A DNA stretch of 21,004 nucleotides. Source: Pyrinomonadales bacterium. Its GTDB lineage: Bacteria; Acidobacteriota; Blastocatellia; Pyrinomonadales; Pyrinomonadaceae. The position numbers and the translations under genes are program-made. Each line of letters starts with the position of its first letter. Position 1 is the first letter of the stretch. This document shows, piece after piece, positions 4,000 through 20,764 of this stretch. The stretch is taken from the NCBI GenBank assembly GCA_038251885.1, contig JBBSAX010000072.1, positions 1 through 21,004 of the forward strand, in the 5' to 3' direction. The notes beneath the pieces were generated by a model. The model searched no databases, was not told where the DNA came from, and saw only the letters and a list, made by a program, of their open reading frames with translations.

Positions 4000-4716
4000 T
4001 TATCCGTGTTCATCTGTGGATAAATTTTCTTCACTTGCTCCAAAATTGTTGTAGTTATCGCTAATGACTTTTCCGTCTTTCAAGATAATTTGACGTTGAG
4101 ATTTATCAGCCAAATTCTGGTCGTGCGTCACTAAAACGAGTGAAACATTGTGGCGGTCGTGCAGATCGGTCATTAGATCGAAAATGTGATTTCCGGTTTT
4201 AGAATCGAGATTTCCGGTCGGTTCGTCGGCGAGCAGGATTTTCGGTTGATTGGCAAATGCTCTGGCAATTGCGACACGTTGTTGTTCACCGCCGGAAAGT
4301 TCTGTTGGATAATGATGTCCGCGATTAGTTAGTTCAACGGCTTCGAGCAAGTCTTTAGCGCGTTGTTTGGCATCTTTTAATCCCAGAATTTCCATCGGAA
4401 TCAAGACATTTTCAAACGCCGTCAAACTCGGAATCAAGTGAAAAGACTGAAAAATAAAACCGATCTTTTCGCTTCGCAAAGTCGCCAGACCATCTTCGTT
4501 CATATCGGTGATATTTTCATTGTCAATCAAAATTGCGCCCGAAGTCGGCGCGTCGAGTCCGGCGATCAAGCCCAGAAGTGTTGATTTTCCGCTGCCTGAC
4601 GCGCCCGTTATGGAAACAAATTGCCCGTCGGGAATTTCCAAAGTTACATCGTTTAAAATCGTCAGAGCATCCGCGCCGGATTGGACTGTCTTTGTTACAT
4701 TTTGAAGAGTTATCAT
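4000..4716 (-). CDS. ybbA: ABC transporter ATP-binding protein (YbbA/LolD-like)
   Basis: Walker A GASGSGKST, signature LSGGEQQR, Walker B ILLADEPTGNLD and H-loop VLVTHD are all present. It lies directly upstream of the YbbP-like permease and divergent from the TesA-like gene, as in the E. coli tesA/ybbA-ybbP locus. Confidence 0.9.
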   Translation of the reverse strand: MITLQNVTKTVQSGADALTILNDVTLEIPDGQFVSITGASGSGKSTLLGLIAGLDAPTSGAILIDNENITDMNEDGLATLRSEKIGFIFQSFHLIPSLTAFENVLIPMEILGLKDAKQRAKDLLEAVELTNRGHHYPTELSGGEQQRVAIARAFANQPKILLADEPTGNLDSKTGNHIFDLMTDLHDRHNVSLVLVTHDQNLADKSQRQIILKDGKVISDNYNNFGASEENLSTDEHG

Positions 4717-4725
4717 AATAAAAAT

Positions 4726-4800
4726 TGTGAATTGTAAATGGTGAATGGTTAATACTTGGTTTTTAATTTACCATTCACCATTTACAATTTACCATTATTA
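4726..4800. promoter_or_regulatory. inverted arrays of 7-bp repeats in the ybbA/tesA divergent intergenic region (function unknown)
   Basis: Tandem heptamers TGTGAAT TGTAAAT GGTGAAT GGTTAAT occupy 4726-4753. The opposing array ATTTACC ATTCACC ATTTACA ATTTACC ATTATTA occupies 4766-4800. The two include a perfect 18-bp inverted repeat (4732-4749 / 4770-4787). The repeat is certain; a regulatory role is inferred from its position only. Confidence 0.4.
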
Positions 4801-4880
4801 ATAGCTTGCAAAAATGACGCAAACAAGTTCGACATTTTTTGCATCATAAAATACGAGTTCAAAAAACATTTTATAAATAT

Positions 4881-9028: not shown

Positions 9029-10192
9029 ATGAACGTAACACATCTCGAATGCGCTAATTGCCATAAAAACTACGAAGCAAATCAATTATTAAATCTCTGC
9101 GGCGAATGCGGCAAACCGCTTCTCGTTCGCTACGATTTGGAGAAAGCGAAAGAAACTTTGACGAAAGATTCGCTTGCTTCGCGTGAATCAAATCTCTGGC
9201 GTTACAAAGAAGTTTTGCCGGTTGAAAATGTTGAAAATATCGTCAGCTTCGGCGAAGGTTGGACACCGCTTTTAGAAACAAAAAAATTGGCTGAATCGCT
9301 TCCCGTAAAATTAAATCTTTTTATCAAAGACGAAGGACAAAATCCGACGCAAAGTTTCAAAGCTCGCGGAATGACGGCGGCGATCTCGATGGCAAAAGAA
9401 TTGGGCATAAAGAAATTAGCCGTGCCTTCGGCGGGAAATGCGGCTGGCGCATTAGCGGCTTATGCGGCACGGGCGGGAATGGAAGCCTTTATATTTATGC
9501 CTTCAGATACGCCGAAAGCGAACATCATCGAATGTCAGCAGACTGGCGCGAATGTTACTTTGATTGACGGTTTAATTACCGATTGCGGCGCGGAAGTCGC
9601 GCGACGAAAAGACTCGGAAGGTTGGTTTGACGTTTCGACTTTGAAAGAACCGTATCGCGTCGAAGGCAAAAAGACGATGGGTTACGAACTCGCCGAGCAA
9701 TTCAAATGGAATTTGCCGGACGTGATTTTATATCCGACGGGCGGCGGAACGGGTTTGATCGGAATGTGGAAGGCGTTTGACGAGATGGAAAAAATGGGTT
9801 GGATCGGTGAAAAAAGACCGCGAATGATTTCCGTTCAATCTCTGACCTGTGCGCCGATTGTTCGCGCTTTTCACGAAGGCAAACGCTTTGCCGACGAATT
9901 TGAAAATGCCGAAACGGTCGCTTCCGGTTTGCGAGTTCCGAAGGCGATCGGCGATTTTTTGATAATTGACGCACTTCACGAATCGCACGGAACTGCAATC
10001 GCTGTTTCCGATGAAGAATTGGTCAAAGCCGTCAAGGAAATCGGCGCAGCGGAAGGCATTTTTACTGCACCCGAAGGTGCGGCGTGTCTTCCGGCTTTGC
10101 GAACTATGATCGAGCAGGATTTGGTCAAAGAAAATGAAACTGTCGTGATTTTCAACACCGGCGCGGGCGTGAAATATTTGGAGTGTTTCTAA
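9029..10192 (+). CDS. thrC: threonine synthase-like PLP-dependent enzyme (fold type II) with N-terminal zinc ribbon
   Basis: N-terminal CANC...CGEC knuckles, [12 protein letters not shown]-lysine motif QSFKARGM and glycine loop [10 protein letters not shown]. Starts 6 nt after the permease stop. The family assignment is solid. Substrate specificity (ThrC versus a related synthase) cannot be settled from sequence alone. Confidence 0.75.
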
Positions 10193-10193
10193 A

Positions 10194-10472
10194 AAAAACG
10201 GAACGCGAACTTTAGTTCGCCGGAAAACTTAAATGTTTTGAACAAATTAATTGAAGGATGTGCAAATTAAAGTTTATTGCTTTCAATAATTAATACTCGG
10301 AATAGATGAGAGATGAAAGATGATAACTGATAGATTAAATCTGTCATCTGTTACCTATCAATTATCATCTACTCCGAATAGCTTTTCTTAAATTTCTAAT
10401 TTGCACATCCTTCAACTAATTCTATAAATTAACGATTTATGACTGGCGAACTAAAGTTCGTGTTCCGTTTTT
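10194..10472. repeat. ~279-bp nested imperfect palindrome (MITE-like element, giant terminator hairpin or structured RNA)
   Basis: Outer arms 10194-10221 / 10445-10472 are complementary at 27/28 positions; the one mismatch is G-T. Inner arms 10251-10269 / 10397-10415 are perfect over 19 bp. Core arms 10319-10333 / 10355-10369 match at 14/15. Each outer arm also holds its own GCGAAC-N4-GTTCG(C/T) hairpin. The left end is an A-run and the right end a T-run. Confidence 0.8.
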
Positions 10473-10561
10473 CATATCAATTTAAAACCATTTTACAGAA
10501 ATCTACGAAGTAAAAAGTGAAGTCTTAACAAAAATAGCAATACGAACAAGGGAATATAAAA

Positions 10562-11510: not shown

Positions 11511-12422
11511 ATGTTTAGTTCAGTAAATCAGACAACCACCTTTGAAGAAACAACAGCACCACCCGAAAATAGTATTGCGAAAATTCTCAAAGCAAATCTG
11601 CCGCCTTTGCCGGGAAGTGTTTTTCGCGTTTTGGAATTATTGCGCGATGTCAATGTTACAAATTCCGCCTTAGCAAACGCAGTCGGTTACGATCCATTAT
11701 TGGCGGCGCGTCTTTTGCGTCTGGCAAATTCGACATATTATTCACGCCAAAATAATGTCACGACGATTTCCAGAGCGATTGACACAATCGGCACGAAAGC
11801 CCTTTATGACGCGGTAATGCTCGGCGTTGCCGCCAACACATTTTCTAAAGAAATCGAAGGTTCGGAAACCGGACGCGCAATTTGGGAGCATTCGTTGGCA
11901 GTCGCAATTTTAGCCCGAAAATTGACCGATGTTCTGCAAATGCGCGGTGCGGAAAACGCCTTTCTCTGCGGACTTCTGCACGACATCGGCAAATTGATTT
12001 TATTAAAATCCGATCCCGAAGGTTACAACTCTCTTTTAGACAGAAATGATGAGGATGAAATGATGAAATCCGAAGATGAATTCTTCGGGGTTAATCACGC
12101 CGAAGTCGGCGCATTATTGATCAAACGCTGGAACTTACCGGACGCAATTTCATCCGTTATCCTTTATCATCACGAGCCTGCAAAAACCGATCAAGCGATT
12201 TTTACCGCGCACGTTATCAGCGTAGCTGACCTGATCGCCGATACTTATGGTTACGGGGTTTCTCCGATAAAAGAAGACAATTATACGGAAGACGAAGAAA
12301 TCTCGTTGTTGCAATCGGACTCGATATTCGCACTTCATTTAACACAATCGCAGATGTTCGAAGCGTGGGAAAGTATTCAGCCGAATCTGCAAGATATTGT
12401 TAAAACTTTCAGAGGAAAGTGA
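11511..12422 (+). CDS. HDOD domain-containing protein (stand-alone)
   Basis: Typical HDOD blocks: LPPLPGSVFRVLELL, GYDPLLAARLLRLANSTYY, IGTKALYD, WEHSLAVA, CGLLHDIGKLIL, NHAEVGALL, ILYHHEP. No receiver, GGDEF/EAL or other partner domain. Confidence 0.85.
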   Translation: MFSSVNQTTTFEETTAPPENSIAKILKANLPPLPGSVFRVLELLRDVNVTNSALANAVGYDPLLAARLLRLANSTYYSRQNNVTTISRAIDTIGTKALYDAVMLGVAANTFSKEIEGSETGRAIWEHSLAVAILARKLTDVLQMRGAENAFLCGLLHDIGKLILLKSDPEGYNSLLDRNDEDEMMKSEDEFFGVNHAEVGALLIKRWNLPDAISSVILYHHEPAKTDQAIFTAHVISVADLIADTYGYGVSPIKEDNYTEDEEISLLQSDSIFALHLTQSQMFEAWESIQPNLQDIVKTFRGK

Positions 12423-12548
12423 AAAGTTGACAGCAAGTTATCAGAGTTAAAGAAAGTTTGCGGATAGTTTGAAAACATCCAACTTGCTCCAAAAAACGCT
12501 TTAAAATTATTAAATTCCAATTTATAAAATACGCCGAAATAAATAAAT

Positions 12549-13427
12549 ATGATTCCATATACCAATCAATACGAACCGCCAATGCCCGTTATCAAATCTA
12601 AAGTTGATATTGAAACTCTTTTGATCACAAAATTACCGCCGTCGCCCGGAACGATGATGCGGATCACCACGCTTTTGCGCGATTATAATGCTTCGACACG
12701 GGAAGTTACGCAAGCGATCAGCTACGAACCTGTTTTAGTTGTTCGTATTTTGCGTCTGGCAAATTCGCCCGTTTACGCGCTTGAAAGAAACGTAACTTCG
12801 ATTCAGGCGGCAATGGCAGCGGTCGGCACGAAAGCGATTCACGACATTGTAATGATCGGTCTGGCTTCGACGACATTTTCAAAAGAGATTAAAAATTCGC
12901 CGATTGCCAGAAAGATTTGGGAACATTCGCTCGCGGTCGCAATGACAGCGCGTGAACTGAGCAAAGTTCTCGGAATGCGCGGAACGGAAGAAGCCTTCAC
13001 CTGCGGACTTCTGCACGACATCGGTAAACTCATTCTTTTGAGCAACGATATTGAAGGCTATCCGACGATTTTGGGCTACACCGGAGAAAACGATATGCTG
13101 TGGGGCGAAGACGAATTATACGGCTACAATCACACCGAAGTCGGTTCGCTGATTGCACGGCGTTGGAATCTGCCGGAAGAAGTTTATTATTCGATTCTGC
13201 ATCACCACAACCCGTCGCAATCGGATCAGGGAAATATTGTCACACATCTCGTTGACATTGCCGACACAATGGCAAATATCAAAGGCTACGGCTTACGCCC
13301 CGAAGAAGAAGAAAAACTCGAAAATTCCGAGTCCGTGATGAAACTCGGTTTTACTCCAGTGCATCTCGAAAACGCTTGGAAAAATGCCGAAAGCAACATC
13401 AACGAAGTGATAAAAACTTTTGCTTAG
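12549..13427 (+). CDS. HDOD domain-containing protein (stand-alone), paralogue of 11511..12422
   Basis: The same block order: LPPSPGTMMRITTLL, SYEPVLVVRILRLANSPVY, VGTKAIHD, WEHSLAVA, CGLLHDIGKLIL, NHTEVGSLI, ILHHHNP. Confidence 0.85.
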   Translation: MIPYTNQYEPPMPVIKSKVDIETLLITKLPPSPGTMMRITTLLRDYNASTREVTQAISYEPVLVVRILRLANSPVYALERNVTSIQAAMAAVGTKAIHDIVMIGLASTTFSKEIKNSPIARKIWEHSLAVAMTARELSKVLGMRGTEEAFTCGLLHDIGKLILLSNDIEGYPTILGYTGENDMLWGEDELYGYNHTEVGSLIARRWNLPEEVYYSILHHHNPSQSDQGNIVTHLVDIADTMANIKGYGLRPEEEEKLENSESVMKLGFTPVHLENAWKNAESNINEVIKTFA

Positions 13428-13457
13428 AAATTTACACAATTCTATTTCAAAGTATAA

Positions 13458-13495
13458 AATCCCGATTACGTTTATGTAGTCGGGATTCTTTCTTT
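13458..13495 (+). terminator. rho-independent terminator after the second HDOD gene
   Basis: AATCCCGATTA-CGTTTATG-TAGTCGGGATT: 11 bp including one G-U pair, followed by CTTTCTTT. Confidence 0.6.
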
Positions 13496-13594
13496 GATTT
13501 GAGAAAAATTATCATTTGTCCGGCTTTTAAAACTGTAATTTTTAGACTTTCAGAATAGTTACTGATGATTGTAAAATATCTCTGAGGTTAAAAA

Positions 13595-13834
13595 ATGAAT
13601 TGGCAAGATAAAATCGTTTCGGATAAAGAAATTTTGCTTGGCAAGCCGACAATTAAAGGAACACGGCTTTCGGTCGAGTTTGTTCTCGAACGTCTGGCAA
13701 GCGGTTGGACGCAAGAACAGCTTTTGGAAAATTATCCGCGTTTGACAAGAGAAAATTTGCAGGCGGTTTTCGCTTACGTGGCGGATTGTTTCAAGGACGG
13801 TTTGATGTATGAACTTTCGGCAGAAACCGTGTAA
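13595..13834 (+). CDS. DUF433 domain protein (antitoxin-like, orphan)
   Basis: GAGG lies 9 nt upstream of the ATG. The sequence ILLGKPTIKGTRLSVEFVLERLASGWTQEQLLENYPRLTRENLQAVFAY matches my recollection of the DUF433 signature (GxPxIxGTRxxV...Y). Confidence 0.75.
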   Translation: MNWQDKIVSDKEILLGKPTIKGTRLSVEFVLERLASGWTQEQLLENYPRLTRENLQAVFAYVADCFKDGLMYELSAETV

Positions 13835-13873
13835 GAAAATTTTTGTTATAATTTCAGCAAGGAGAAAAGAGAA

Positions 13874-14125
13874 ATGGAAATTACATTTACAATTTCTGAT
13901 GAAACAGCCAAACAACTTTCCAGACGCGCCGGTAAAGAAGGGCAGAATGTTTCGACCTTTATGGCTAAAATTGCCGAGCGCGAAGCGAAAAAACCGACGC
14001 TCGACGAAGTTCTTGCGCCCGTCCGCCGTCAGTTTGCCGAAAGCGGTATGAACGAAAACGAATTAACCGAACTCGTCAGGGAAGAAAGAAAGGCGATTCA
14101 AAAAGAAAAGCGCGGGGAAAAATAG
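13874..14125 (+). CDS. ribbon-helix-helix-type antitoxin (partner of the PIN gene)
   Basis: AAGGAG lies 8 nt upstream of the ATG. The N-terminal beta-strand EITFTISDE plus helix AKQLSRRAGKEGQNVSTFMAKIA looks RHH/CopG-like. Its stop TAG (14123-14125) abuts the ATG of the PIN gene (14126). The tail is charged. Confidence 0.65.
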   Translation: MEITFTISDETAKQLSRRAGKEGQNVSTFMAKIAEREAKKPTLDEVLAPVRRQFAESGMNENELTELVREERKAIQKEKRGEK

Positions 14126-14611
14126 ATGTATGACAAAAAAATCGCCGTTGTTTTTGATTGCAACATTTATATTCAAATTGTCTTGAACTCTTTCGGCGCG
14201 GCGAAATCCTGTTATAATTTGATTGATAAAAACGAAATCGAACTCTTTATAACGCAAGAAATTTTAGAAGAAACAGCCGATGTCTTATCGCGTCCGCGAA
14301 TTAAAAAGTTGGTTCCTGCGCTGACTCCTGCACTGATCGAAGATTTTTTGGAAGACATTGCTTCAAAAGCCGTAATAATCGAAAATATTCCCGAAGAATT
14401 TAAATACGAACGCGACCCGGACGACGCGCTTTATATCAATTTAGCTGTTATAGTTCCAGCCGACTACCTGATTAGTTTAGACAGAGATTTGCTTGATTTG
14501 ATGAAAGACGATTATAAGGAAAGCCGGGAATTTATGAAGCGTTATCCTTTTATAAAAGTGCTAACGCCGCAAGAACTTTTAAAGAAGATAGATGAACTAA
14601 GAAAACTTTGA
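14126..14611 (+). CDS. PIN-domain toxin (PIN_3 / 'putative TA system toxin component, PIN family' type)
   Basis: Acidic PIN positions occur in the expected order: VVFDCNIY, ITQEILEETADVL, DPDDALYINLAV, LISLDRDLL. It abuts the upstream small antitoxin gene. Confidence 0.8.
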   Translation: MYDKKIAVVFDCNIYIQIVLNSFGAAKSCYNLIDKNEIELFITQEILEETADVLSRPRIKKLVPALTPALIEDFLEDIASKAVIIENIPEEFKYERDPDDALYINLAVIVPADYLISLDRDLLDLMKDDYKESREFMKRYPFIKVLTPQELLKKIDELRKL

Positions 14612-14615
14612 TTAA

Positions 14616-14690
14616 ACACTCGTCGGATTCGCTTTTACTTCCGACAAACATTTTGAACAAGCGGGATTTATTAAACTTTTAGAGAAATAA
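14616..14690 (+). pseudogene. 3'-terminal remnant of a vapC-type PIN gene
   Basis: 14638-14690 is 48/53 identical to the last 53 nt (16200-16252) of the intact vapC-like gene. It reads ...AFTSDKHFEQAGFIKLLEK* against ...AFTSDKHFEQAGFIKLLGK*. The frame is closed by TAA at 14613-14615, so only ~24 codons survive. Confidence 0.85.
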
Positions 14691-14776
14691 AATATCTTCT
14701 CTGTGGCAATCCACGTAGAAAAACCGCGAAATATTTTTAATAATCAAGCAAGAAACAAATTTGGAGAATTTAAGTT

Positions 14777-15499
14777 ATGCGTCTTCTTGCTTTTTATTTT
14801 ACAGTTGCGTTTTTAGCTTTTGGGATTGGAATATTGATCGTTTCAAAATTCTATCAAAAATCGGAAAATACAATTATTAATGTAGTTGAAACAAAGATAA
14901 TTCAAGATAAAAAGAATATTTCCAAAGATTTCGGAACTGGTTCTGCAACTTCTGACAGACTAATGAATGAGCCTGTTTATGTTCCAAAATTGCATAAACC
15001 GACGTGTAGCGACAAAAAATTATTACCGATTTGGAATGAATTAAAAAAAGACAAAGAGTTTAAAGAACGCGAAAAAGAATTTTATCAGAAAGCCGATTGC
15101 TCAGAAATGTTGCATATTCAAAAAGCAGACTTAAATGATGATGGGCAGAAAGAGATTATTTTATCAGGAAATAACAGTAATTTATGTGATGCCGCCTTCA
15201 GTTGTTTTTATTGGATTTTCGAGAAAAAGGGCAACAAATATAAACAAATTCTTCGCTCAACTGCTACTGGTTACAATGAAATTGCTAATTATACAATAAA
15301 GAGAGGCATTGAAATTGGCAAAACAAAATCAAATGGTTATCGGGCAATTATTTTGAGAGGCGGTCCAGGTTATCAAACATTTCAATCTACATTTCGGTTT
15401 GAAGATAATAAATATGAAGAAAAGGAATGTTTGACTTTTGATGTTGTTCTTAATAATAAGGATTGGGTTAGAAGTTGCAAGGAAGCGTGGAAAGAATAG
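14777..15499 (+). CDS. membrane-anchored hypothetical protein (cargo 1)
   Basis: GGAG lies 10 nt upstream of the ATG. N-terminal TM anchor MRLLAFYFTVAFLAFGIGILIV. It contains a DLNDDGQKEII FG-GAP/VCBS-like turn and several Cys. A 60-nt sample at the start is 20/60 G+C, markedly AT-richer than flanking genes. Confidence 0.65.
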   Translation: MRLLAFYFTVAFLAFGIGILIVSKFYQKSENTIINVVETKIIQDKKNISKDFGTGSATSDRLMNEPVYVPKLHKPTCSDKKLLPIWNELKKDKEFKEREKEFYQKADCSEMLHIQKADLNDDGQKEIILSGNNSNLCDAAFSCFYWIFEKKGNKYKQILRSTATGYNEIANYTIKRGIEIGKTKSNGYRAIILRGGPGYQTFQSTFRFEDNKYEEKECLTFDVVLNNKDWVRSCKEAWKE

Positions 15500-15544
15500 T
15501 TCAATTGAATATAATGCTCCATAAAACTTGGAAAAATCTCAATA

Positions 15545-15591
15545 ATTTGTTAGTTTCAACCTTTAATTTCTGCAACTAAAACGGAAAATTT
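15545..15591 (+). repeat. copy 1 of a 47-nt junction repeat (5' region of the antitoxin-vapC pair)
   Basis: ATTTGTTAGTTTCAACCTTTAATTTCTGCAACTAAAACGGAAAATTT is 43/47 identical to 16812-16858. Weaker similarity extends ~20 nt upstream (AAACTTGGA / AAATTTGGA). Confidence 0.9.
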
Positions 15592-15597
15592 ACAGCT

Positions 15598-15834
15598 ATG
15601 ATAAAAGTCAAAGGAAAGGTAGAAAACGGCAAAATTCTCGCGCTCGAACCTGTGGATGATTACGAAGGCAAAGACGTAATTATAACTTTAGATGACGAGC
15701 CGGAATCGGAAAATCAAAGCGGTTGGAAAAGATTGTTGACGGTTATCGAAGAAAACCAAATTGACGCGAATATTACCGATTTAGCACATCAGCACGACCA
15801 TTATTTATATGGCAAATCAAAGCGTGAAGATTAA
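15598..15834 (+). CDS. antitoxin (AF2212/DUF104-like N-terminus) paired with VapC
   Basis: MIKVKGKVENGKILALEPVDDYEGKDVIITLDD resembles the short DUF104-type antitoxin fold. 78 aa with an acidic tail. It overlaps the start of the PIN gene by 26 nt. Confidence 0.6.
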   Translation: MIKVKGKVENGKILALEPVDDYEGKDVIITLDDEPESENQSGWKRLLTVIEENQIDANITDLAHQHDHYLYGKSKRED

Positions 15835-16252
15835 ACCGCGCGAAAATGTTTTTGCCGACACAGCCGCTTTTATCGCGCTTCTGATTCGCAGAGATGAGTT
15901 TCATCAAAAAGCTAACGAAATAATGGCTGAGTTGAGCGGAAAAGACACAAAATTATTTGTTACCGAACTAATTCTTATCGAACTTGCCAACGCTCTTTCA
16001 TCAGTCGAACTTCGAGCGCGAGCCGTGATTTTGATTGACGAATTACAGACGCTTCCGAATGTTGAAATCATTTGGTCAAGCACCGAACTCTTTAAAAAAG
16101 CGTGGACTCTCTACGGCGAAAGACCCGACAAAGAATGGAGTTTGACCGACTGCGCGAGCTTCGTCGTGATGAAAGAACTCGGAATCAATCTAGCATTCAC
16201 CTCCGACAAACATTTTGAACAAGCAGGATTTATTAAACTTTTGGGAAAATAA
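15809..16252 (+). CDS. vapC: VapC-type PIN-domain toxin
   Basis: The four conserved acidic positions are in PIN order: VFADTAAFIAL, TELILIELANAL, SLTDCASFVVM, AFTSDKHFEQAGF. 147 aa, overlapping the upstream antitoxin. The start could instead be GTG 15824. Confidence 0.85.
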   Translation: MANQSVKIKPRENVFADTAAFIALLIRRDEFHQKANEIMAELSGKDTKLFVTELILIELANALSSVELRARAVILIDELQTLPNVEIIWSSTELFKKAWTLYGERPDKEWSLTDCASFVVMKELGINLAFTSDKHFEQAGFIKLLGK

Positions 16253-16325
16253 TATTATGAATCCGGTTACTTTTTGTTTTACGGTTGCACTATTAGTATT
16301 CGAAACTGTGTTTGATTAAATTCTT

Positions 16326-16772
16326 ATGTCTAAAATTATTCGTTGGAATACGCCATTTACAGATACTCAATATCCTTCGGTAGAATTTTTGACTACGATT
16401 GAACAAGATAAATATAATGTTCTAAAAGTTTTAGTTGCGCCTTCTGGAATAGATAAATATCCGAAGTATTTAATGAATTTTGGACAGGTTATTGCCTTTA
16501 CCTGTATGGAAGAAGCAAATGCTCCTGATCGTGGTTTTGATTCCGTTTCAGAAGAGATTGAACCACATCTATCAACTTATAAATGGATTGATTCACCTTG
16601 GTTGAAATCATACGAATCTCAAATACATTTTATTCCATCAGGTCATTTGGGATATTTTTCGCATTACTTAATTTTTGGTGGAGATAGCAATGTAGAAGTA
16701 ATTACACCTTATGAACCATTAATAGAAGTAGTTGAGAAAAAAAGACTCTTTAAGGTTGAACGCGAACTTTAG
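16326..16772 (+). CDS. hypothetical protein (cargo 2, 148 aa)
   Basis: Uninterrupted ORF in a very AT-rich stretch with no clear RBS and no domain recognised. Its last codons (GAA CGC GAA CTT TAG) lie within a 16-mer shared with the arm of the palindrome at 10.2 kb. Confidence 0.5.
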   Translation: MSKIIRWNTPFTDTQYPSVEFLTTIEQDKYNVLKVLVAPSGIDKYPKYLMNFGQVIAFTCMEEANAPDRGFDSVSEEIEPHLSTYKWIDSPWLKSYESQIHFIPSGHLGYFSHYLIFGGDSNVEVITPYEPLIEVVEKKRLFKVEREL

Positions 16773-16811
16773 TATTTTCGGAATCAAATAAATTTGGACA
16801 ATAATGTTGAA

Positions 16812-16858
16812 ATTTGTTAGCCTTAACCTTTAATTTCTGCATCTAAAACGGAAAATTT
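16812..16858 (+). repeat. copy 2 of the 47-nt junction repeat, here upstream of the radical SAM operon
   Basis: ATTTGTTAGCCTTAACCTTTAATTTCTGCATCTAAAACGGAAAATTT is 43/47 identical to 15545-15591. It ends 32 nt before the ATG at 16891. Confidence 0.9.
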
Positions 16859-16890
16859 TTACTTAGCTTTTTTTACATTTGAGGATAATT

Positions 16891-18846
16891 ATGTTTAGTG
16901 ATAATTTCAGACGCGGCGAAGGGAAAGGGAAAGGGAAAGCGGGTTCAAAGATTGCTTCAAAACTGGCGGATGTCGGTTGGAAGGCGTTTCAGGCGGTGAA
17001 TAAATCTTTGCCGGAAGGGAAATCTATTCAGCCGAATTGGGCGGCGGAACCGCTTTTGAAAAGCTATGAACGCACTGCGCCGCCGCTCGGATTTCCGCGT
17101 GAAACGGATTCTTTGTGTCCGAAATGCGTCAAGCAAGTGCGCGAAGGTGTGATAAATAAAGACATTCCGCTGGAGATTTTGATGAATTCGCATCCGGGCG
17201 AGATCAAGGCGCAGATTGTCGAAGAAAACGGGCAAGTCGTGATGCGGAAAACCTGCCCGACGCACGGCGAATTTGTGGACGTGATGGCGACCGATCCGGC
17301 GTTTTTAGAGCGTATCGAATCGCTTTTTTACGGACGCGATTTTCGTTCCGCCGAAGACGAACACATCCACAAACACGGAACTTCCGACATCAAATACGGA
17401 CGCGGCGCGGTTTTGACGGTTGATCTGACGAACCGCTGCAATATGATGTGCAACCCGTGTTTTATGGACGCAAATCAAGTCGGCTACGTTCACGAACCGA
17501 CATTTGAAGACACGAAAGCGATATTAGACCGCGCGATTTCGTTCAAACCGAAACGTCAAATTATCATTCTATTTTCCGGCGGTGAACCGACGATTGCGCC
17601 GCACTTTTTAGAATCGGTTGCGTATGCGAAAAAGATCGGTTTTTACCGAATCTTAGCGGCGACGAACGGAATTCGTTATGCCGAAGATATAGAATTTTGC
17701 AAAGCGGCAAAAGAAGCCGGACAACACGGCGTTTATCTGCAATTTGACGGCGTTTCAGAAGAAAAAAACAAACATCGCGGAGTCGGAAATTTGTTCGACG
17801 TAAAACTTCGCGCGATTGAAAATCTCGCGTCGGTCGGCATCAAAGTTACGCTTGTCACGACAATTGTAAATACGATAAATAACGATGGAATCGGCGACAT
17901 CGTAAAGTTCGCCGCTGACAATATTGATAAAGTTCAAACCATCGCATTTCAGCCGGTTTCATTTACGGGACGCGACGAAGATGTTTCCGATAAAGACCGA
18001 ATCGAGCAGCGTTACACGCTCGCGGGAATGGCGCAGGATTTGGATACGCAAATGGACGGAACGCTCAAACCTCTGCGCGATTGGTTTCCGCTTTCGTCTT
18101 ATTCAGCATTTACTTCCGTGATGGATATGCTGCAAGGTGCGGACGCGCCGTGGGGTTGGTCTTCGTGCAATTGTCATCCGAATTGCGGGATTTTCACGTT
18201 GATGATCGTCAACAAAAAATCCGGCGAAATTCGTTCGCTTTTTGAATTTTTCAATTACGAACAATTTATGAAAGACGTGGCGACGATCACCGACACGGCT
18301 CGCGGAAAAAAGCTGACGATGGCGCAACTCGGAATGGCGATTATGCGAAATTACAACGCCGCAAACGCGCCCGAAGGTTTTCCCGTTTCGCAGATTCTGA
18401 ATCTGTTCAAACCGTCGTCCGCCGATTCAAATTCGGATCGTAATGACCGAATGAAGCAGGAAAAATCGGAAGAAGATGTCTGGCGAGTTTTGTGCGTCGA
18501 AGGAATGTGGTTTCAAGATTTATTCAATTACGATTTCCGCAGAACCGAAATGTGTGTCATTCCTTATGGAACACAAGAAGGCGAAGTTTCGTTTTGCGCT
18601 TATAATACGGGAGTCGGCTGGCGGCAAATCATCGAAGAAATGCACAAAACCGCGAGCCTGGGCGAATGGTATCAAGAACACGGTCGCCACGCCGTCTATG
18701 CGAAAGGCAAAGAAGTTCCCGGAATCAAAAAATCCCGCTCTATTTCTCTACCTGTAATTGCTAATATTGTTTCGGAAGACAACGACGCGCCGAGTGTTAC
18801 GCCGTATTTGATTGAGGAAGAAGAATCTGCAACATTAAATGTGTAA
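16891..18846 (+). CDS. radical SAM enzyme with Tes / GDGT-MAS (tetraether lipid synthase)-like architecture
   Basis: GAGGA lies 5 nt upstream of ATG 16891; the ORF is open from TTG 16879. Motifs in order: CPKC...CPTHG zinc-ribbon/rubredoxin-like pair, radical SAM triad CNMMCNPC, FSGGEPT, ATNGI, YLQFDG, FQPVSFTGR, Cys cluster CNCHPNC, and C-terminal MCVIPY...SFCAYN. Radical SAM membership is near certain. The Tes-family assignment rests on my recall of the family's motif order, not on an alignment. Confidence 0.8.
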   Translation: MFSDNFRRGEGKGKGKAGSKIASKLADVGWKAFQAVNKSLPEGKSIQPNWAAEPLLKSYERTAPPLGFPRETDSLCPKCVKQVREGVINKDIPLEILMNSHPGEIKAQIVEENGQVVMRKTCPTHGEFVDVMATDPAFLERIESLFYGRDFRSAEDEHIHKHGTSDIKYGRGAVLTVDLTNRCNMMCNPCFMDANQVGYVHEPTFEDTKAILDRAISFKPKRQIIILFSGGEPTIAPHFLESVAYAKKIGFYRILAATNGIRYAEDIEFCKAAKEAGQHGVYLQFDGVSEEKNKHRGVGNLFDVKLRAIENLASVGIKVTLVTTIVNTINNDGIGDIVKFAADNIDKVQTIAFQPVSFTGRDEDVSDKDRIEQRYTLAGMAQDLDTQMDGTLKPLRDWFPLSSYSAFTSVMDMLQGADAPWGWSSCNCHPNCGIFTLMIVNKKSGEIRSLFEFFNYEQFMKDVATITDTARGKKLTMAQLGMAIMRNYNAANAPEGFPVSQILNLFKPSSADSNSDRNDRMKQEKSEEDVWRVLCVEGMWFQDLFNYDFRRTEMCVIPYGTQEGEVSFCAYNTGVGWRQIIEEMHKTASLGEWYQEHGRHAVYAKGKEVPGIKKSRSISLPVIANIVSEDNDAPSVTPYLIEEEESATLNV

Positions 18847-18851
18847 AAGAA

Positions 18852-19763
18852 ATGGAAATTGTCAAAACTTTCAAAAAGTTGGGCGATCTCGCTAAGCTAA
18901 TGATGTTCGGAATGCCCGTGAACGCCGTCGGCTCGATTGATGCAACGAAGCGTTGTAATCTGCGCTGTGAGCATTGTTATTTTTTTGCCGAAGAACATAA
19001 GGAAGTCGAATTAACGGTCGAGGAATGGACGGCGAAATTCGAAGCAATGAAAGCGGCGGGCGATCCGATGATGCTCTGCACTTGGGTTGGCGGCGAACCG
19101 CTCGTTCGCAAACCTTTGATAGACATCGGAAGAAAATACTTCAAACACAACACGATTGTAACCAACGGAACGATGGAATTGCCCGATTGGACTGATTGCA
19201 CTTGGGTAATTTCGATTGACGGCACGGAAGAGGCGTTTGCCAAAATGCGTGCGCCCGGAATTTATCAGAAAATCAAGGAAAACGTCCAACGTCATCCTGA
19301 TTTGAAAATTCAAATTTCGTGCGTTCTGACTTCTCTAACCAAAGACTGCATCGAAGATTTAATTATCGAATGGGGACATCTCGCTCGTGGCGGAATTATC
19401 TTCGATTTCTTTACGCCTGTAAATAAATTGGACGAATCACTCTGGATTGATTGGACGGAACGCGATCAAATAATTGATAAACTGCTTGCGCTTAAAAAGA
19501 AATATCCCGGGAAAATCAATATGCTCGATTCGACGCTCGATTTGATGAAATCGAAAAAATCGAGAAGCGTTACGGACAATTGCCTTTTCAAAGAAAAAGC
19601 CTTCACGCTCGGCGCGGACGGTAAACCGAAGGGCAAATGTATGATGGGCGACAACGCTGATTGCGACCGTTGCGGCTGTGTCGTGCCGTTTTATATGGCG
19701 ACGTTGAACAGCCCGAAATTGGTGTTGCAAGAGGCATTCAAAAAAGCTGCGGGCAGAAATTAA
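18852..19763 (+). CDS. small radical SAM enzyme with C-terminal Cys cluster (twitch/SPASM-like), partner of the upstream radical SAM gene
   Basis: CNLRCEHC triad near the N-terminus, VGGEPL, and C-terminal C-x7-C-x2-C-x-C (CMMGDNADCDRCGC). It starts 5 nt after the upstream stop, suggesting translational coupling. Confidence 0.8.
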   Translation: MEIVKTFKKLGDLAKLMMFGMPVNAVGSIDATKRCNLRCEHCYFFAEEHKEVELTVEEWTAKFEAMKAAGDPMMLCTWVGGEPLVRKPLIDIGRKYFKHNTIVTNGTMELPDWTDCTWVISIDGTEEAFAKMRAPGIYQKIKENVQRHPDLKIQISCVLTSLTKDCIEDLIIEWGHLARGGIIFDFFTPVNKLDESLWIDWTERDQIIDKLLALKKKYPGKINMLDSTLDLMKSKKSRSVTDNCLFKEKAFTLGADGKPKGKCMMGDNADCDRCGCVVPFYMATLNSPKLVLQEAFKKAAGRN

Positions 19764-20451: not shown

Positions 20452-20500
20452 TTGTGAATAATTAAGATTCACTCTACTATCGTAAAAAAGACTTTTTTAG

Positions 20501-20637
20501 CTGGGAGCGCACGCATCCTGCGTGCCACGCCGCTGGCAAAGCGGCGTGAAAAATTTCTGCATTAAATAAAGTTTATTTGTGGCAGAAATTTATTCGCGCT
20601 CACGCGCTCAGCACGCAGGGATGCGGTGCGCTCCCGG
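20501..20637. repeat. GC-rich multi-stem element (REP-like repeat or structured ncRNA)
   Basis: The outer stem CTGGGAGCGCACGCATCCTGCGTGC (20501-20525) pairs with GCACGCAGGGATGCGGTGCGCTCCCGG (20611-20637), with two 1-nt bulges. It encloses a perfect 9-bp hairpin CACGCCGCT-GGCAA-AGCGGCGTG (20526-20548) and an AT-rich near-perfect palindrome at 20551-20591. A tandem 8-mer CGCGCTCA x2 lies at 20595-20610. A T-rich run follows at 20645-20657. Confidence 0.75.
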
Positions 20638-20731
20638 CAGACTGTTTTTTATTTTTTACGGCATTTATTGAAAAATTACTTTTAGTTCATACCCACAAAT
20701 TTTAGATTTGTGCGAATTTTTACAAAACATT

Positions 20732-20764
20732 AAAAAACCGCTGAATTGCAATTCAGCGGTTTTT
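20732..20764. terminator. bidirectional rho-independent terminator
   Basis: AAAAAA-CCGCTGAATT-GC-AATTCAGCGG-TTTTT: a perfect 10-bp stem flanked by A6 and T5. It lies 31 nt downstream of the minus-strand gene's stop and at the end of the plus-strand radical SAM/Uma2 unit. Confidence 0.8.

Follow-up and report, generated by a model that had tools for sequence, protein, structure and literature searches.

Integration hotspots between the core genes of bacterial chromosomes were reportedly described by Oliveira, Touchon and Rocha in 2017, and hotspots and variable islets of this kind are rich in toxin–antitoxin (TA) and defence genes, as exemplified by the TA-rich islands of Mycobacterium tuberculosis. 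The TA partners of type II VapBC modules are said to mix and match, in accounts attributed to Leplae et al. in 2011 and Makarova et al. in 2009, and homology-facilitated illegitimate recombination was reportedly characterized in 2002 by de Vries and Wackernagel and by Prudhomme et al. Sedentary chromosomal integrons and clusters of attC sites lacking integron integrases (CALIN) are known in Acidobacteria, for which an attC model has been used (PMC8352920). Here we compare with these systems a small islet of TA genes and orphan open reading frames (ORFs) that lies directly 5′ of a Tes-like radical SAM gene, hereafter rSAM, in contig JBBSAX010000072.1 of a Pyrinomonadales bacterium (assembly GCA_038251885.1). 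The entire contig, 21,004 nt (21 kb) of a metagenome-assembled genome (MAG), was analysed and is referred to as the window; comparison loci and genomes carry L labels (L002, L092 and so on).

A sequence-only reading of the window had described a mosaic of TA modules and AT-rich cargo ORFs in which a vapC 3′ end (repeat A), an unrelated cargo ORF and a vapBC 5′ region (repeat B) occur twice in that order, and had proposed that vapBC copies act as the conserved flanks of a cassette-like hotspot. Comparison with relatives confirms and extends the observation, and supports the interpretation in part. The reading that we favour, at a probability of roughly 0.6, is that of a TA and orphan-gene islet at a long-lived insertion hotspot 5′ of rSAM, where two versions of the locus have been stacked without a dedicated recombinase.

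Interleaved repeats and their sources

In a BLASTN self-search of the window, only the HDOD paralogues give stronger direct repeats than the A and B pairs. A1 (14631-14693) and A2 (16193-16255) agree at 55/63 positions (E = 8e-16), and B1 (15544-15591) and B2 (16811-16858) at 44/48 (E = 4e-13), the latter similarity reaching with gaps about 15522-15593 versus 16788-16862. The identities first reported, 48/53 and 43/47, are recovered for the best 53 nt of A and the best 47 nt of B, and all features of the original gene order lie where they had been placed. A third pair had been missed: 16257-~16307, which reads MNPVTFCFTVALLVFETVFD followed by a stop codon, is homologous to the 5′ end of the first cargo gene, c1 ("cargo 1"), at 14777-14827. 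The two units thus share only 63, ~50 and 48-70 nt, with no continuous homology as in a simple tandem duplication.

The source of repeat B became apparent from its distribution. One genome per species was scanned with the rSAM protein, which gave 80 rSAM loci, all in Pyrinomonadaceae or related Acidobacteriota, at 80-97% amino acid (aa) identity. B2-like sequence is present in at least 21 other species, once per locus, from ~110 to 25 nt 5′ of the rSAM ATG, and most of the loci that carry it have no vapBC nearby; the assignment of B as a vapBC operator or 5′ region was accordingly abandoned in favour of the rSAM upstream region. The conserved columns are TTGG(A/C)A and, 18 nt on, an invariant AATTTG(T/C)TAG(C/G)C, followed by a less conserved leader, so that the invariant cores are TTGG and AATTTGyTAGsC. 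We read the second as TG-n-TAGCCT, a putative extended −10 element. RNAalifold predicts 0 conserved pairs across 22 sequences and no Rfam family matches B at E <= 1, on which grounds a structured RNA such as a riboswitch or leader was rejected. Because of its position and conservation, B is taken as a putative rSAM promoter with the first ~40 nt of the leader. Its GTTAGCC was also considered as an integron core site for cassette insertion and rejected, since the variable DNA begins 5′ of the −35-like element and not at G/TT.

The window holds this region twice. B2 (16788..16890, + strand) is the native copy, with the promoter-like core and the full 5′ leader of rSAM, and B1 (15522..15593, +) is a second copy consisting of TTGGAA (−35-like), TGTTAGTTT (extended −10-like) and ~40 nt of leader. 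B1 is fused to vapB1 at a TTTAC microhomology, which is common to the sequence upstream of vapB1 in L093 (GGAGTTTACAGTTATG) and to the rSAM leader (AAAATTTTTACTTAGC). Since B1 is the extra copy, placed in front of vapB, the proposal that the position before rSAM had lost a vapBC has to be reversed: B2–rSAM is ancestral. The left halves of B1 and B2, which comprise the −35-like element and spacer, are 54% identical and belong to different allelic types. The left half of B1 is 89% identical to those of L049/L009 (type I, also in L002, L007 and L097), and that of B2 is 89% identical to those of L055/L045 (type II, also in L023, L030, L093 and L095). Identity between the two right halves reaches 90%, but it does not exceed 82% with any other locus; the same pattern recurs within L092.

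Repeat A corresponds to the 3′ end of the genes of a single vapC family (vapC1), an end whose DNA sequence is conserved throughout that family. The intact window pair comprises vapB1 (15598-15834, +; 78 aa) and vapC1 (15809-16252, +; Pfam PF01850, E = 2.5e-13), which overlap by 26 nt, and A2 is the 3′ end of this vapC1. The vapC1 product matches M. tuberculosis VapC20 (5wzf, E = 3.5e-7) with D17, E53, D114 and D133 kept, and has more than 3,500 relatives; the vapB1 protein has no sequence match in Pfam, NCBIfam or PDB. A PIN protein with its acidic residues behind a small overlapping upstream gene makes the pair a predicted type II VapBC. The two genes co-occur in at least 15 loci and lie 5′ of rSAM in all long contigs examined. 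Neither vapC1 nor cargo 2 has close relatives in viral contigs, and phage carriage was rejected for that reason.

A1 belongs to a vapC1 3′ stump (14616..14693, +) of the last ~24 codons, the stop codon and 3 nt, which reads in frame as AFTSDKHFEQAGFIKLLEK with a terminal stop and begins 5-9 nt past the stop codon of a PIN_3 toxin gene. It is 84-92% identical to vapC1 3′ ends elsewhere versus 87% to A2, which is itself 79-85% identical to most other vapC1 3′ ends and 92.5% to that of L092. A1 is therefore as near to foreign vapC1 ends as to A2, or nearer, and the two look like different alleles. A1 is best read as the stump left when an RHH–PIN_3 pair overwrote a vapBC1; the first unit is taken as an overwritten DUF433–vapB1–vapC1–c1 arrangement because that arrangement is common (L097, L113, L114, L177).

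The close relative L092 belongs to another JGI sample; its synteny with the window extends from the FtsX gene through the CarboxypepD_reg gene, at 84-91% DNA identity. The genes and elements of L092 are, in order, HDOD2, terminator, spacer, c1′ (46% aa identity), B1′, vapB, vapC, ORF226, B2′ and rSAM, with DNA identity to the window of 91% over vapBC and 87% over B2–rSAM. Between vapC and B2, L092 has ORF226 where the window has the c1 stump with cargo 2; homology ends 9 nt past the vapC stop codon (16261) and is restored from the left edge of B2 (16790) onwards. Cargo has here been cleanly replaced with both flanks conserved, and this is the clearest case of the same flanks holding different AT-rich ORFs across genomes, as the notion of a variable hotspot had anticipated. 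What survives of the idea that vapBC copies flank the exchanged cargo is the exchange; the joints at which it happens are the vapC stop/c1 start and the putative rSAM promoter. The B1′–vapB layout of L092 further establishes that the duplication of B and the fusion of B1 to vapB are genuine and took place before the two genomes diverged. The block 13498-14700 (DUF433–RHH–PIN_3–A1) is missing from L092, where spacer and c1 directly follow the terminator. A1 therefore does not stem from the same event as B1. A ~200-nt palindromic insert 3′ of HDOD2 in L092 (4618-4826), with the look of a miniature inverted-repeat transposable element (MITE), is not in the window.

The first "cargo" gene also has a history at this site. 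The family of c1 (14777..15499, +), whose AT-rich sequence encodes an N-terminal membrane anchor (by eye), is small and fast-evolving, with 16 sequences at 30-64% identity. Members lie directly 5′ of B–rSAM in L002 (whose rSAM is 97% identical in aa), L049, L097, L179 and L180, after vapBC in L177, and in the same slot in L092. As c1 adjoins B–rSAM in several loci with differing left neighbours, c1–B–rSAM is the ground state, into which TA modules enter before or within c1 and in which other ORFs replace the c1 body; c1 is thus the customary neighbour of rSAM, and its classification as imported cargo does not hold. Two different vapC families are followed by the joint in which the vapC stop leads through AAAATTATG into the 5′ end of c1; it is present in L045, L093, L095, most of L097-L115 and, in two copies, L023. 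The c1 5′ stumps end at scattered points, from +50 to +73, before six different downstream genes. In the window the stump (16257..16321, +; 20 codons and a stop, with homology to ~16307) precedes cargo 2 (16326..16772, +; 148 aa).

Two further observations in relatives concern c1 5′ and vapC1 3′ ends. A 207-aa ORF in L003 (8789-9412) resembles c1 in the 21 residues of the membrane anchor with which it begins, is unrelated to it beyond them, and may be an in-frame fusion of a c1 5′ stump to a new body. At a contig end in L023 (1-165), a transposase-like C-terminus (by eye, ending in AVIHLTMIRMLVRRLAPDFSD and a stop) abuts a vapC1 3′ stump, which suggests insertion of an insertion sequence (IS) into vapC.

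The insertion site and its contents

Over the 80 species loci, rSAM keeps the conservation given above and its neighbours vary on both sides. At least nine unrelated ORF families adjoin B–rSAM across the relatives: besides c1 and cargo 2, these are ORF226 (L092, L060), ORF206 (L023), an ORF206 of another family (L045, L103), ORF152 (L030), ORF105 (L095), ORF259 (L093) and the slot ORFs of L025 and L064. The slot ORFs of relatives mostly have a GC content of 0.31-0.38 versus 0.48-0.50 for rSAM. In more distant species a PALP (L051 and others), SDR or HDOD gene directly abuts rSAM, and the distance from PALP to rSAM in the window is 6.7 kb.

Scars of the rSAM 5′ region are found 5′ of TA modules in four arrangements with four different cut points, namely leader position −22 (window and L092), the ATG (L095), +30 (L045) and +45 (L111). 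Blocks therefore enter repeatedly beside rSAM, and only outcomes with an intact B–rSAM survive. Exchange also takes place within the vapC–c1 joint, since one cargo allele (c1 stump plus ORF206, 91% aa identity) is linked to vapBC1 in L103 and to at2–vapC2 in L045.

Two further loci add detail to this variety. At 5290-5790 of L095, the ATG is the fusion point between a full copy of the rSAM promoter region with its leader and an at2-type antitoxin gene, which is interrupted by ~130 nt and followed by vapB1–vapC1. In L034 (6716-9772, − strand), a 1018-aa ORF with a GC content of 0.35 and a SIR2-like GAGxS motif (by eye) adjoins rSAM, and the hotspot may thus also take up defence-type genes.

In the window, all islet genes lie on the + strand. 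The left edge is a terminator-like hairpin with a T-run 3′ of HDOD2 (13458..13497, +; 13-bp stem), 90% identical to L092 4827-4875. Positions 13498-13565 have no significant homology in alignments to the upstream sequence of relatives; a c1 stump 5′ of DUF433 was considered and rejected, its alignment being insignificant beyond 13566. A module leader follows (TGATTGTAAAATATC..GAGG, 13566..13594, +; extended −10-like), homologous both to the sequence upstream of DUF433 in L097, L111, L114 and L023 and to the native vapB1 upstream sequence of L093, L099 and L100. The DUF433 gene (13595..13834, +; Pfam PF04255, E = 1e-21), an orphan antitoxin-like gene, encodes a protein 86-90% identical to copies in L023, L030, L097, L113 and L114, where the next gene is DUF5615-like (assigned by eye), at2 or vapB1. 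Behind it stand an RHH-like antitoxin gene (13874-14125, +; weak Pfam RHH match) and the PIN_3 toxin gene (14126-14611, +; PIN_3 E = 3.9e-15, TIGR00305 E = 1.4e-20), a pair with no homologue among the 80 rSAM loci. The spacer between A1 and c1 (14694..14776, +) is common to L092 4880-4953, and its last ~15 nt (14757-14771, TTTGGAGAATTTAAG) resemble the extreme vapC end, as in the vapC–c1 joint CTTTTGGAGAAATAAAATTATG.

The conserved right anchor of the hotspot, rSAM (16891..18846, +), most likely starts at the ATG at 16891 and matches Pfam Radical_SAM and Zn_ribbon_HMPTM; within NCBIfam it comes closest to Tes, the tetraether lipid synthase (NF045702, 321.7 bits, under the cut-off of 450). Tes-family enzymes make membrane-spanning lipids, and the anchor is Tes-like, so rearrangements of the promoter could affect rSAM expression.

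The contention that cargo is AT-richer than its surroundings is borne out by profiling of GC and third-position GC (GC3) over whole genes, which gave 0.32 and 0.25 for c1 and 0.33 and 0.19 for cargo 2, against 0.45-0.48 and 0.44-0.53 for the HDOD genes, PALP and the two radical SAM genes of the window; TA genes are intermediate. The 60-nt samples first quoted, with 20/60 and 33/60 G+C, were likewise reproduced. The two cargo proteins are unrelated to each other and match no Pfam family.

Family searches and an attC model agree with the earlier statement that the window contains no integrase, attC site or transposase. No tRNA, Rfam family, integrase or transposase was found in its 21 kb, and no window ORF matched Phage_integrase, in a search for which the recombinase of the L085 integron (484.6 bits on TIGR02249) served as positive control. 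For transposons, IS and MITEs, whose signs are a transposase, terminal inverted repeats and target-site duplications, no transposase was seen, and the inverted repeats in 12000-19000 came to a single weak one. Elsewhere in the window, PALP and SDR have between them a MITE-like, near-perfect long hairpin of ~280 nt (10190-10476; −116 kcal/mol, z = −17 versus shuffles), placed at the edge of the segment that parts PALP from rSAM here. More intergenic palindromes occur at 1350-1432, 4716-4803, 20500-20638 and 20733-20764, the last of them perfect over 32 nt.

Cargo 2 belongs to a family of 76 sequences and links the islet to integrons elsewhere. Its protein has no Pfam, NCBIfam or PADLOC match, an AlphaFold2 model (pLDDT 82) has no PDB fold match, and its DNA homology to relatives is limited to the ORF. 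A homologue at 57% identity is carried as a cassette by a true chromosomal integron in L085 (3827-12444; also L086 and L087). This integron is complete, lies on a 401-kb Pyrinomonadaceae contig and combines an intI gene, which encodes the recombinase cited above, with no fewer than 13 attC sites (86-112 nt; GCCTAACAAC...GCGTTAGRC). In L078 (13995-15782), a 178-aa ORF that carries the c1 C-terminal domain lies between two attC matches, and an IS110-family transposase stands beside the second attC, ~2 kb 3′ of rSAM, in an attC cluster with no integrase in view. The cargo families, found as cassettes elsewhere, therefore belong to the cassette pool.

An attC covariance model was built from 13 sites of one Pyrinomonadaceae integron; it recovers all sites in L086 and two in L078, and could miss very different attC types. 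Its best match in the window, with filters off, scores 9.8 bits (E about 1), and no attC was found beside the slot in any of the 80 rSAM loci. Closer homologues of cargo 2 (79-83% aa identity) occur in other contexts, flanked by a 26-nt hairpin repeat, GTCTCAAAAACGACCCTTTTTGAGAC, which lies between small co-oriented ORFs in L082 (5950-6480), L083 (2400-2520, 3190-3215 and 3700-3850) and L084. This hairpin, found neither in the window nor in the 80 rSAM loci, could be a repetitive extragenic palindrome (REP)-like element, a terminator-like element or another cassette boundary.

A proposed origin for the two units

The basic unit would consist of a TA module, c1 or a replacement ORF, the putative rSAM promoter region B and rSAM, and the window would hold two such units head to tail. 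Unit 1 would be DUF433, a vapBC1 overwritten by RHH–PIN_3 with the stump A1 remaining, c1, and B1 with its type I left half; unit 2 would be vapB1, vapC1, the c1 5′ stump, cargo 2, and B2 with its type II left half, then rSAM. The allelic A1 and A2, the allelic left halves of B and the TTTAC join point to two haplotypes of one upstream unit having been stacked. In the history we favour, DNA of the form vapBC–X–B–rSAM, from a related genome or a sister copy, would have been joined in by homology in B/rSAM on the right and by an illegitimate join at the 5-nt TTTAC of the rSAM leader on the left. The old promoter copy B1 would thereby have been left driving vapBC, with rSAM retaining an intact B2. 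Later the slot ORF would have been swapped and the vapBC of unit 1 overwritten. Such swaps would use the conserved joints (vapC 3′ end/c1 start; B core AATTTGTTAG) as homology, with occasional illegitimate joins. Functionally, vapBC may be transcribed from B1, with read-through into cargo 2, and deletion of the islet would be hindered by its TA pairs.

The comparison says that one junction was illegitimate and that the other arose within the invariant B core, by crossover or by later conversion. Between the two routes, import anchored in B/rSAM and in-place tandem duplication with allele replacement, it cannot decide: the identical right halves of B favour duplication in place, and the allelic differences favour import. 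Several points weigh against the favoured history. The near-identical right halves of B in the window and in L092 fit in-place duplication or gene conversion better than simple import, and a single linear import alone cannot leave both right halves recipient-type. No donor-like or recipient-like haplotype of the exact lineage was found, nor any recombination breakpoint in rSAM, whose identity to L002 is about 90% throughout. The c1 truncations fall within about 25 nt and the joins at start or stop codons, a pattern for which random illegitimate events need selection. The case for B as a promoter consists of position and conservation, and a simple sigma-70 scan of the window did not list it. 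Finally, gene order 3′ of rSAM is also fluid, which makes "hotspot" a relative term.

A purely in-place history is unlikely in our judgement. Microhomology-mediated tandem duplication of vapB–vapC–c1–B up to TTTAC in one genome, followed by decay of unit 1 and replacement of c1 and the B left half of unit 2 by homologous exchange with another allele, would give the interleaving A1–B1–A2–B2, the TTTAC microhomology at the novel joint, and right halves of B that are lineage-specific and nearly identical between copies in both genomes. A suitable starting arrangement also exists, as DUF433–vapBC1–c1–B(type I)–rSAM in L097 and as DUF433–vapBC1–c1 before the contig end in L177. However, A1 and A2 look like different alleles rather than recent copies, the left halves of B are different alleles too, and there is no homology between the short repeats. 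These three points call for at least two more exchanges, with which the in-place history converges on the one we favour. That the stacking is an artefact, either chance similarity or a chimeric assembly of two strains in one MAG contig, is barely credible. The window is a whole 21-kb MAG contig, the repeats are short, and the vapC 3′ motif is DNA-conserved in many PIN genes; against this stand the self-BLAST E values of 8e-16 and 4e-13, an identical 6.6-kb Logan contig (possibly from the same reads) and the presence of the B1–vapBC–X–B2–rSAM layout in L092, a separate sample.

A dedicated cassette system, in which the vapC-end/c1-start joint and B would be attachment sites for a recombinase encoded elsewhere, whether an integron integrase acting in trans or another enzyme, and circles would excise and insert beside rSAM, is very doubtful. 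It would account for the cassette homologues of cargo 2 in L085 and of the c1 domain between attC matches in L078, for the co-orientation of the genes, for cargo ORFs that may have no promoter of their own (a simple promoter scan of the window lists many AT-rich chance sites) and for the repeated arrival of new material beside rSAM. The context TAAAATTATG is frequent at the joins; its standing as a special site is weakened by ordinary window genes, which also have A/T-rich start contexts. On the other side, attC matches are absent from the window and from the slots of relatives, and the distance from cargo stop codon to B, 16-24 nt in the window and about 20-60 nt in relatives, is too short for attC sites of 86-112 nt. 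Moreover, the junctions are scattered (+50 to +73 in c1; −22, 0, +30 and +45 in rSAM), no recombinase lies in the window, and viral contigs hold no close relatives. Nothing points to a dedicated mechanism.

A related possibility, which we regard as quite improbable, is a recombinase-independent (or novel-recombinase) gene-capture site at which TA modules and cassette-pool ORFs are added serially beside rSAM; the joint and the promoter core could serve as reusable recombination sites, promoter copies could express the captures, and TA pairs could lock them in. If true, it would amount to an integron-like acquisition platform made of ordinary sequence.

The islet among known systems

The islet is a variant of known TA-rich hotspots. 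For an uncultured soil lineage it shows, at nucleotide resolution, the growth of a small chromosomal hotspot, in which upstream units have been stacked and single ORFs swapped between short conserved joints, and in which the putative promoter of a conserved gene has been duplicated and reused for incoming TA genes. It also connects AT-rich orphan genes found outside an integron with families that travel as integron cassettes as well, and it cautions against taking short repeats around TA genes as evidence of a new cassette mechanism.

Like integration hotspots, the islet occupies a fixed site between conserved genes, with gene content that differs among relatives, low G+C, TA modules and their stumps, the SIR2-like ORF of L034 (by eye) and no need for dedicated machinery. 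Unlike them, it is very small in scale, with single-ORF slots and genes co-oriented with the anchor; its growth beside the anchor is polar, and the putative promoter and 5′ end of the anchor have been duplicated repeatedly, with no tRNA, integrase or prophage here. Integron and CALIN arrays share with it the co-oriented small AT-rich ORFs interspersed with TA pairs, the presumed expression of cargo from an upstream promoter, and both cargo families, which are true cassettes elsewhere. In contrast, intI, attI and attC are absent here, boundaries do not lie at GTTRRRY cores and the junctions are scattered.

Homology-facilitated illegitimate recombination is matched by a new block that would be anchored on one side in B/rSAM and joined on the other at the TTTAC microhomology, and by cut points that differ between lineages. 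Here, however, the process is deduced from sequence comparison, and the recipient-type duplicate of the B right half needs unequal exchange between sister copies or gene conversion. Finally, the locus resembles the mix-and-match of VapBC modules in its PIN toxin with an overlapping small upstream gene, in its orphan antitoxin-like genes and in the overwriting of modules, DUF433 being followed by a DUF5615-like gene, at2, vapB1 or RHH depending on the genome. It departs from that pattern in that the swaps have occurred repeatedly at one chromosomal address, reusing the joint between the vapC end and the c1 start.

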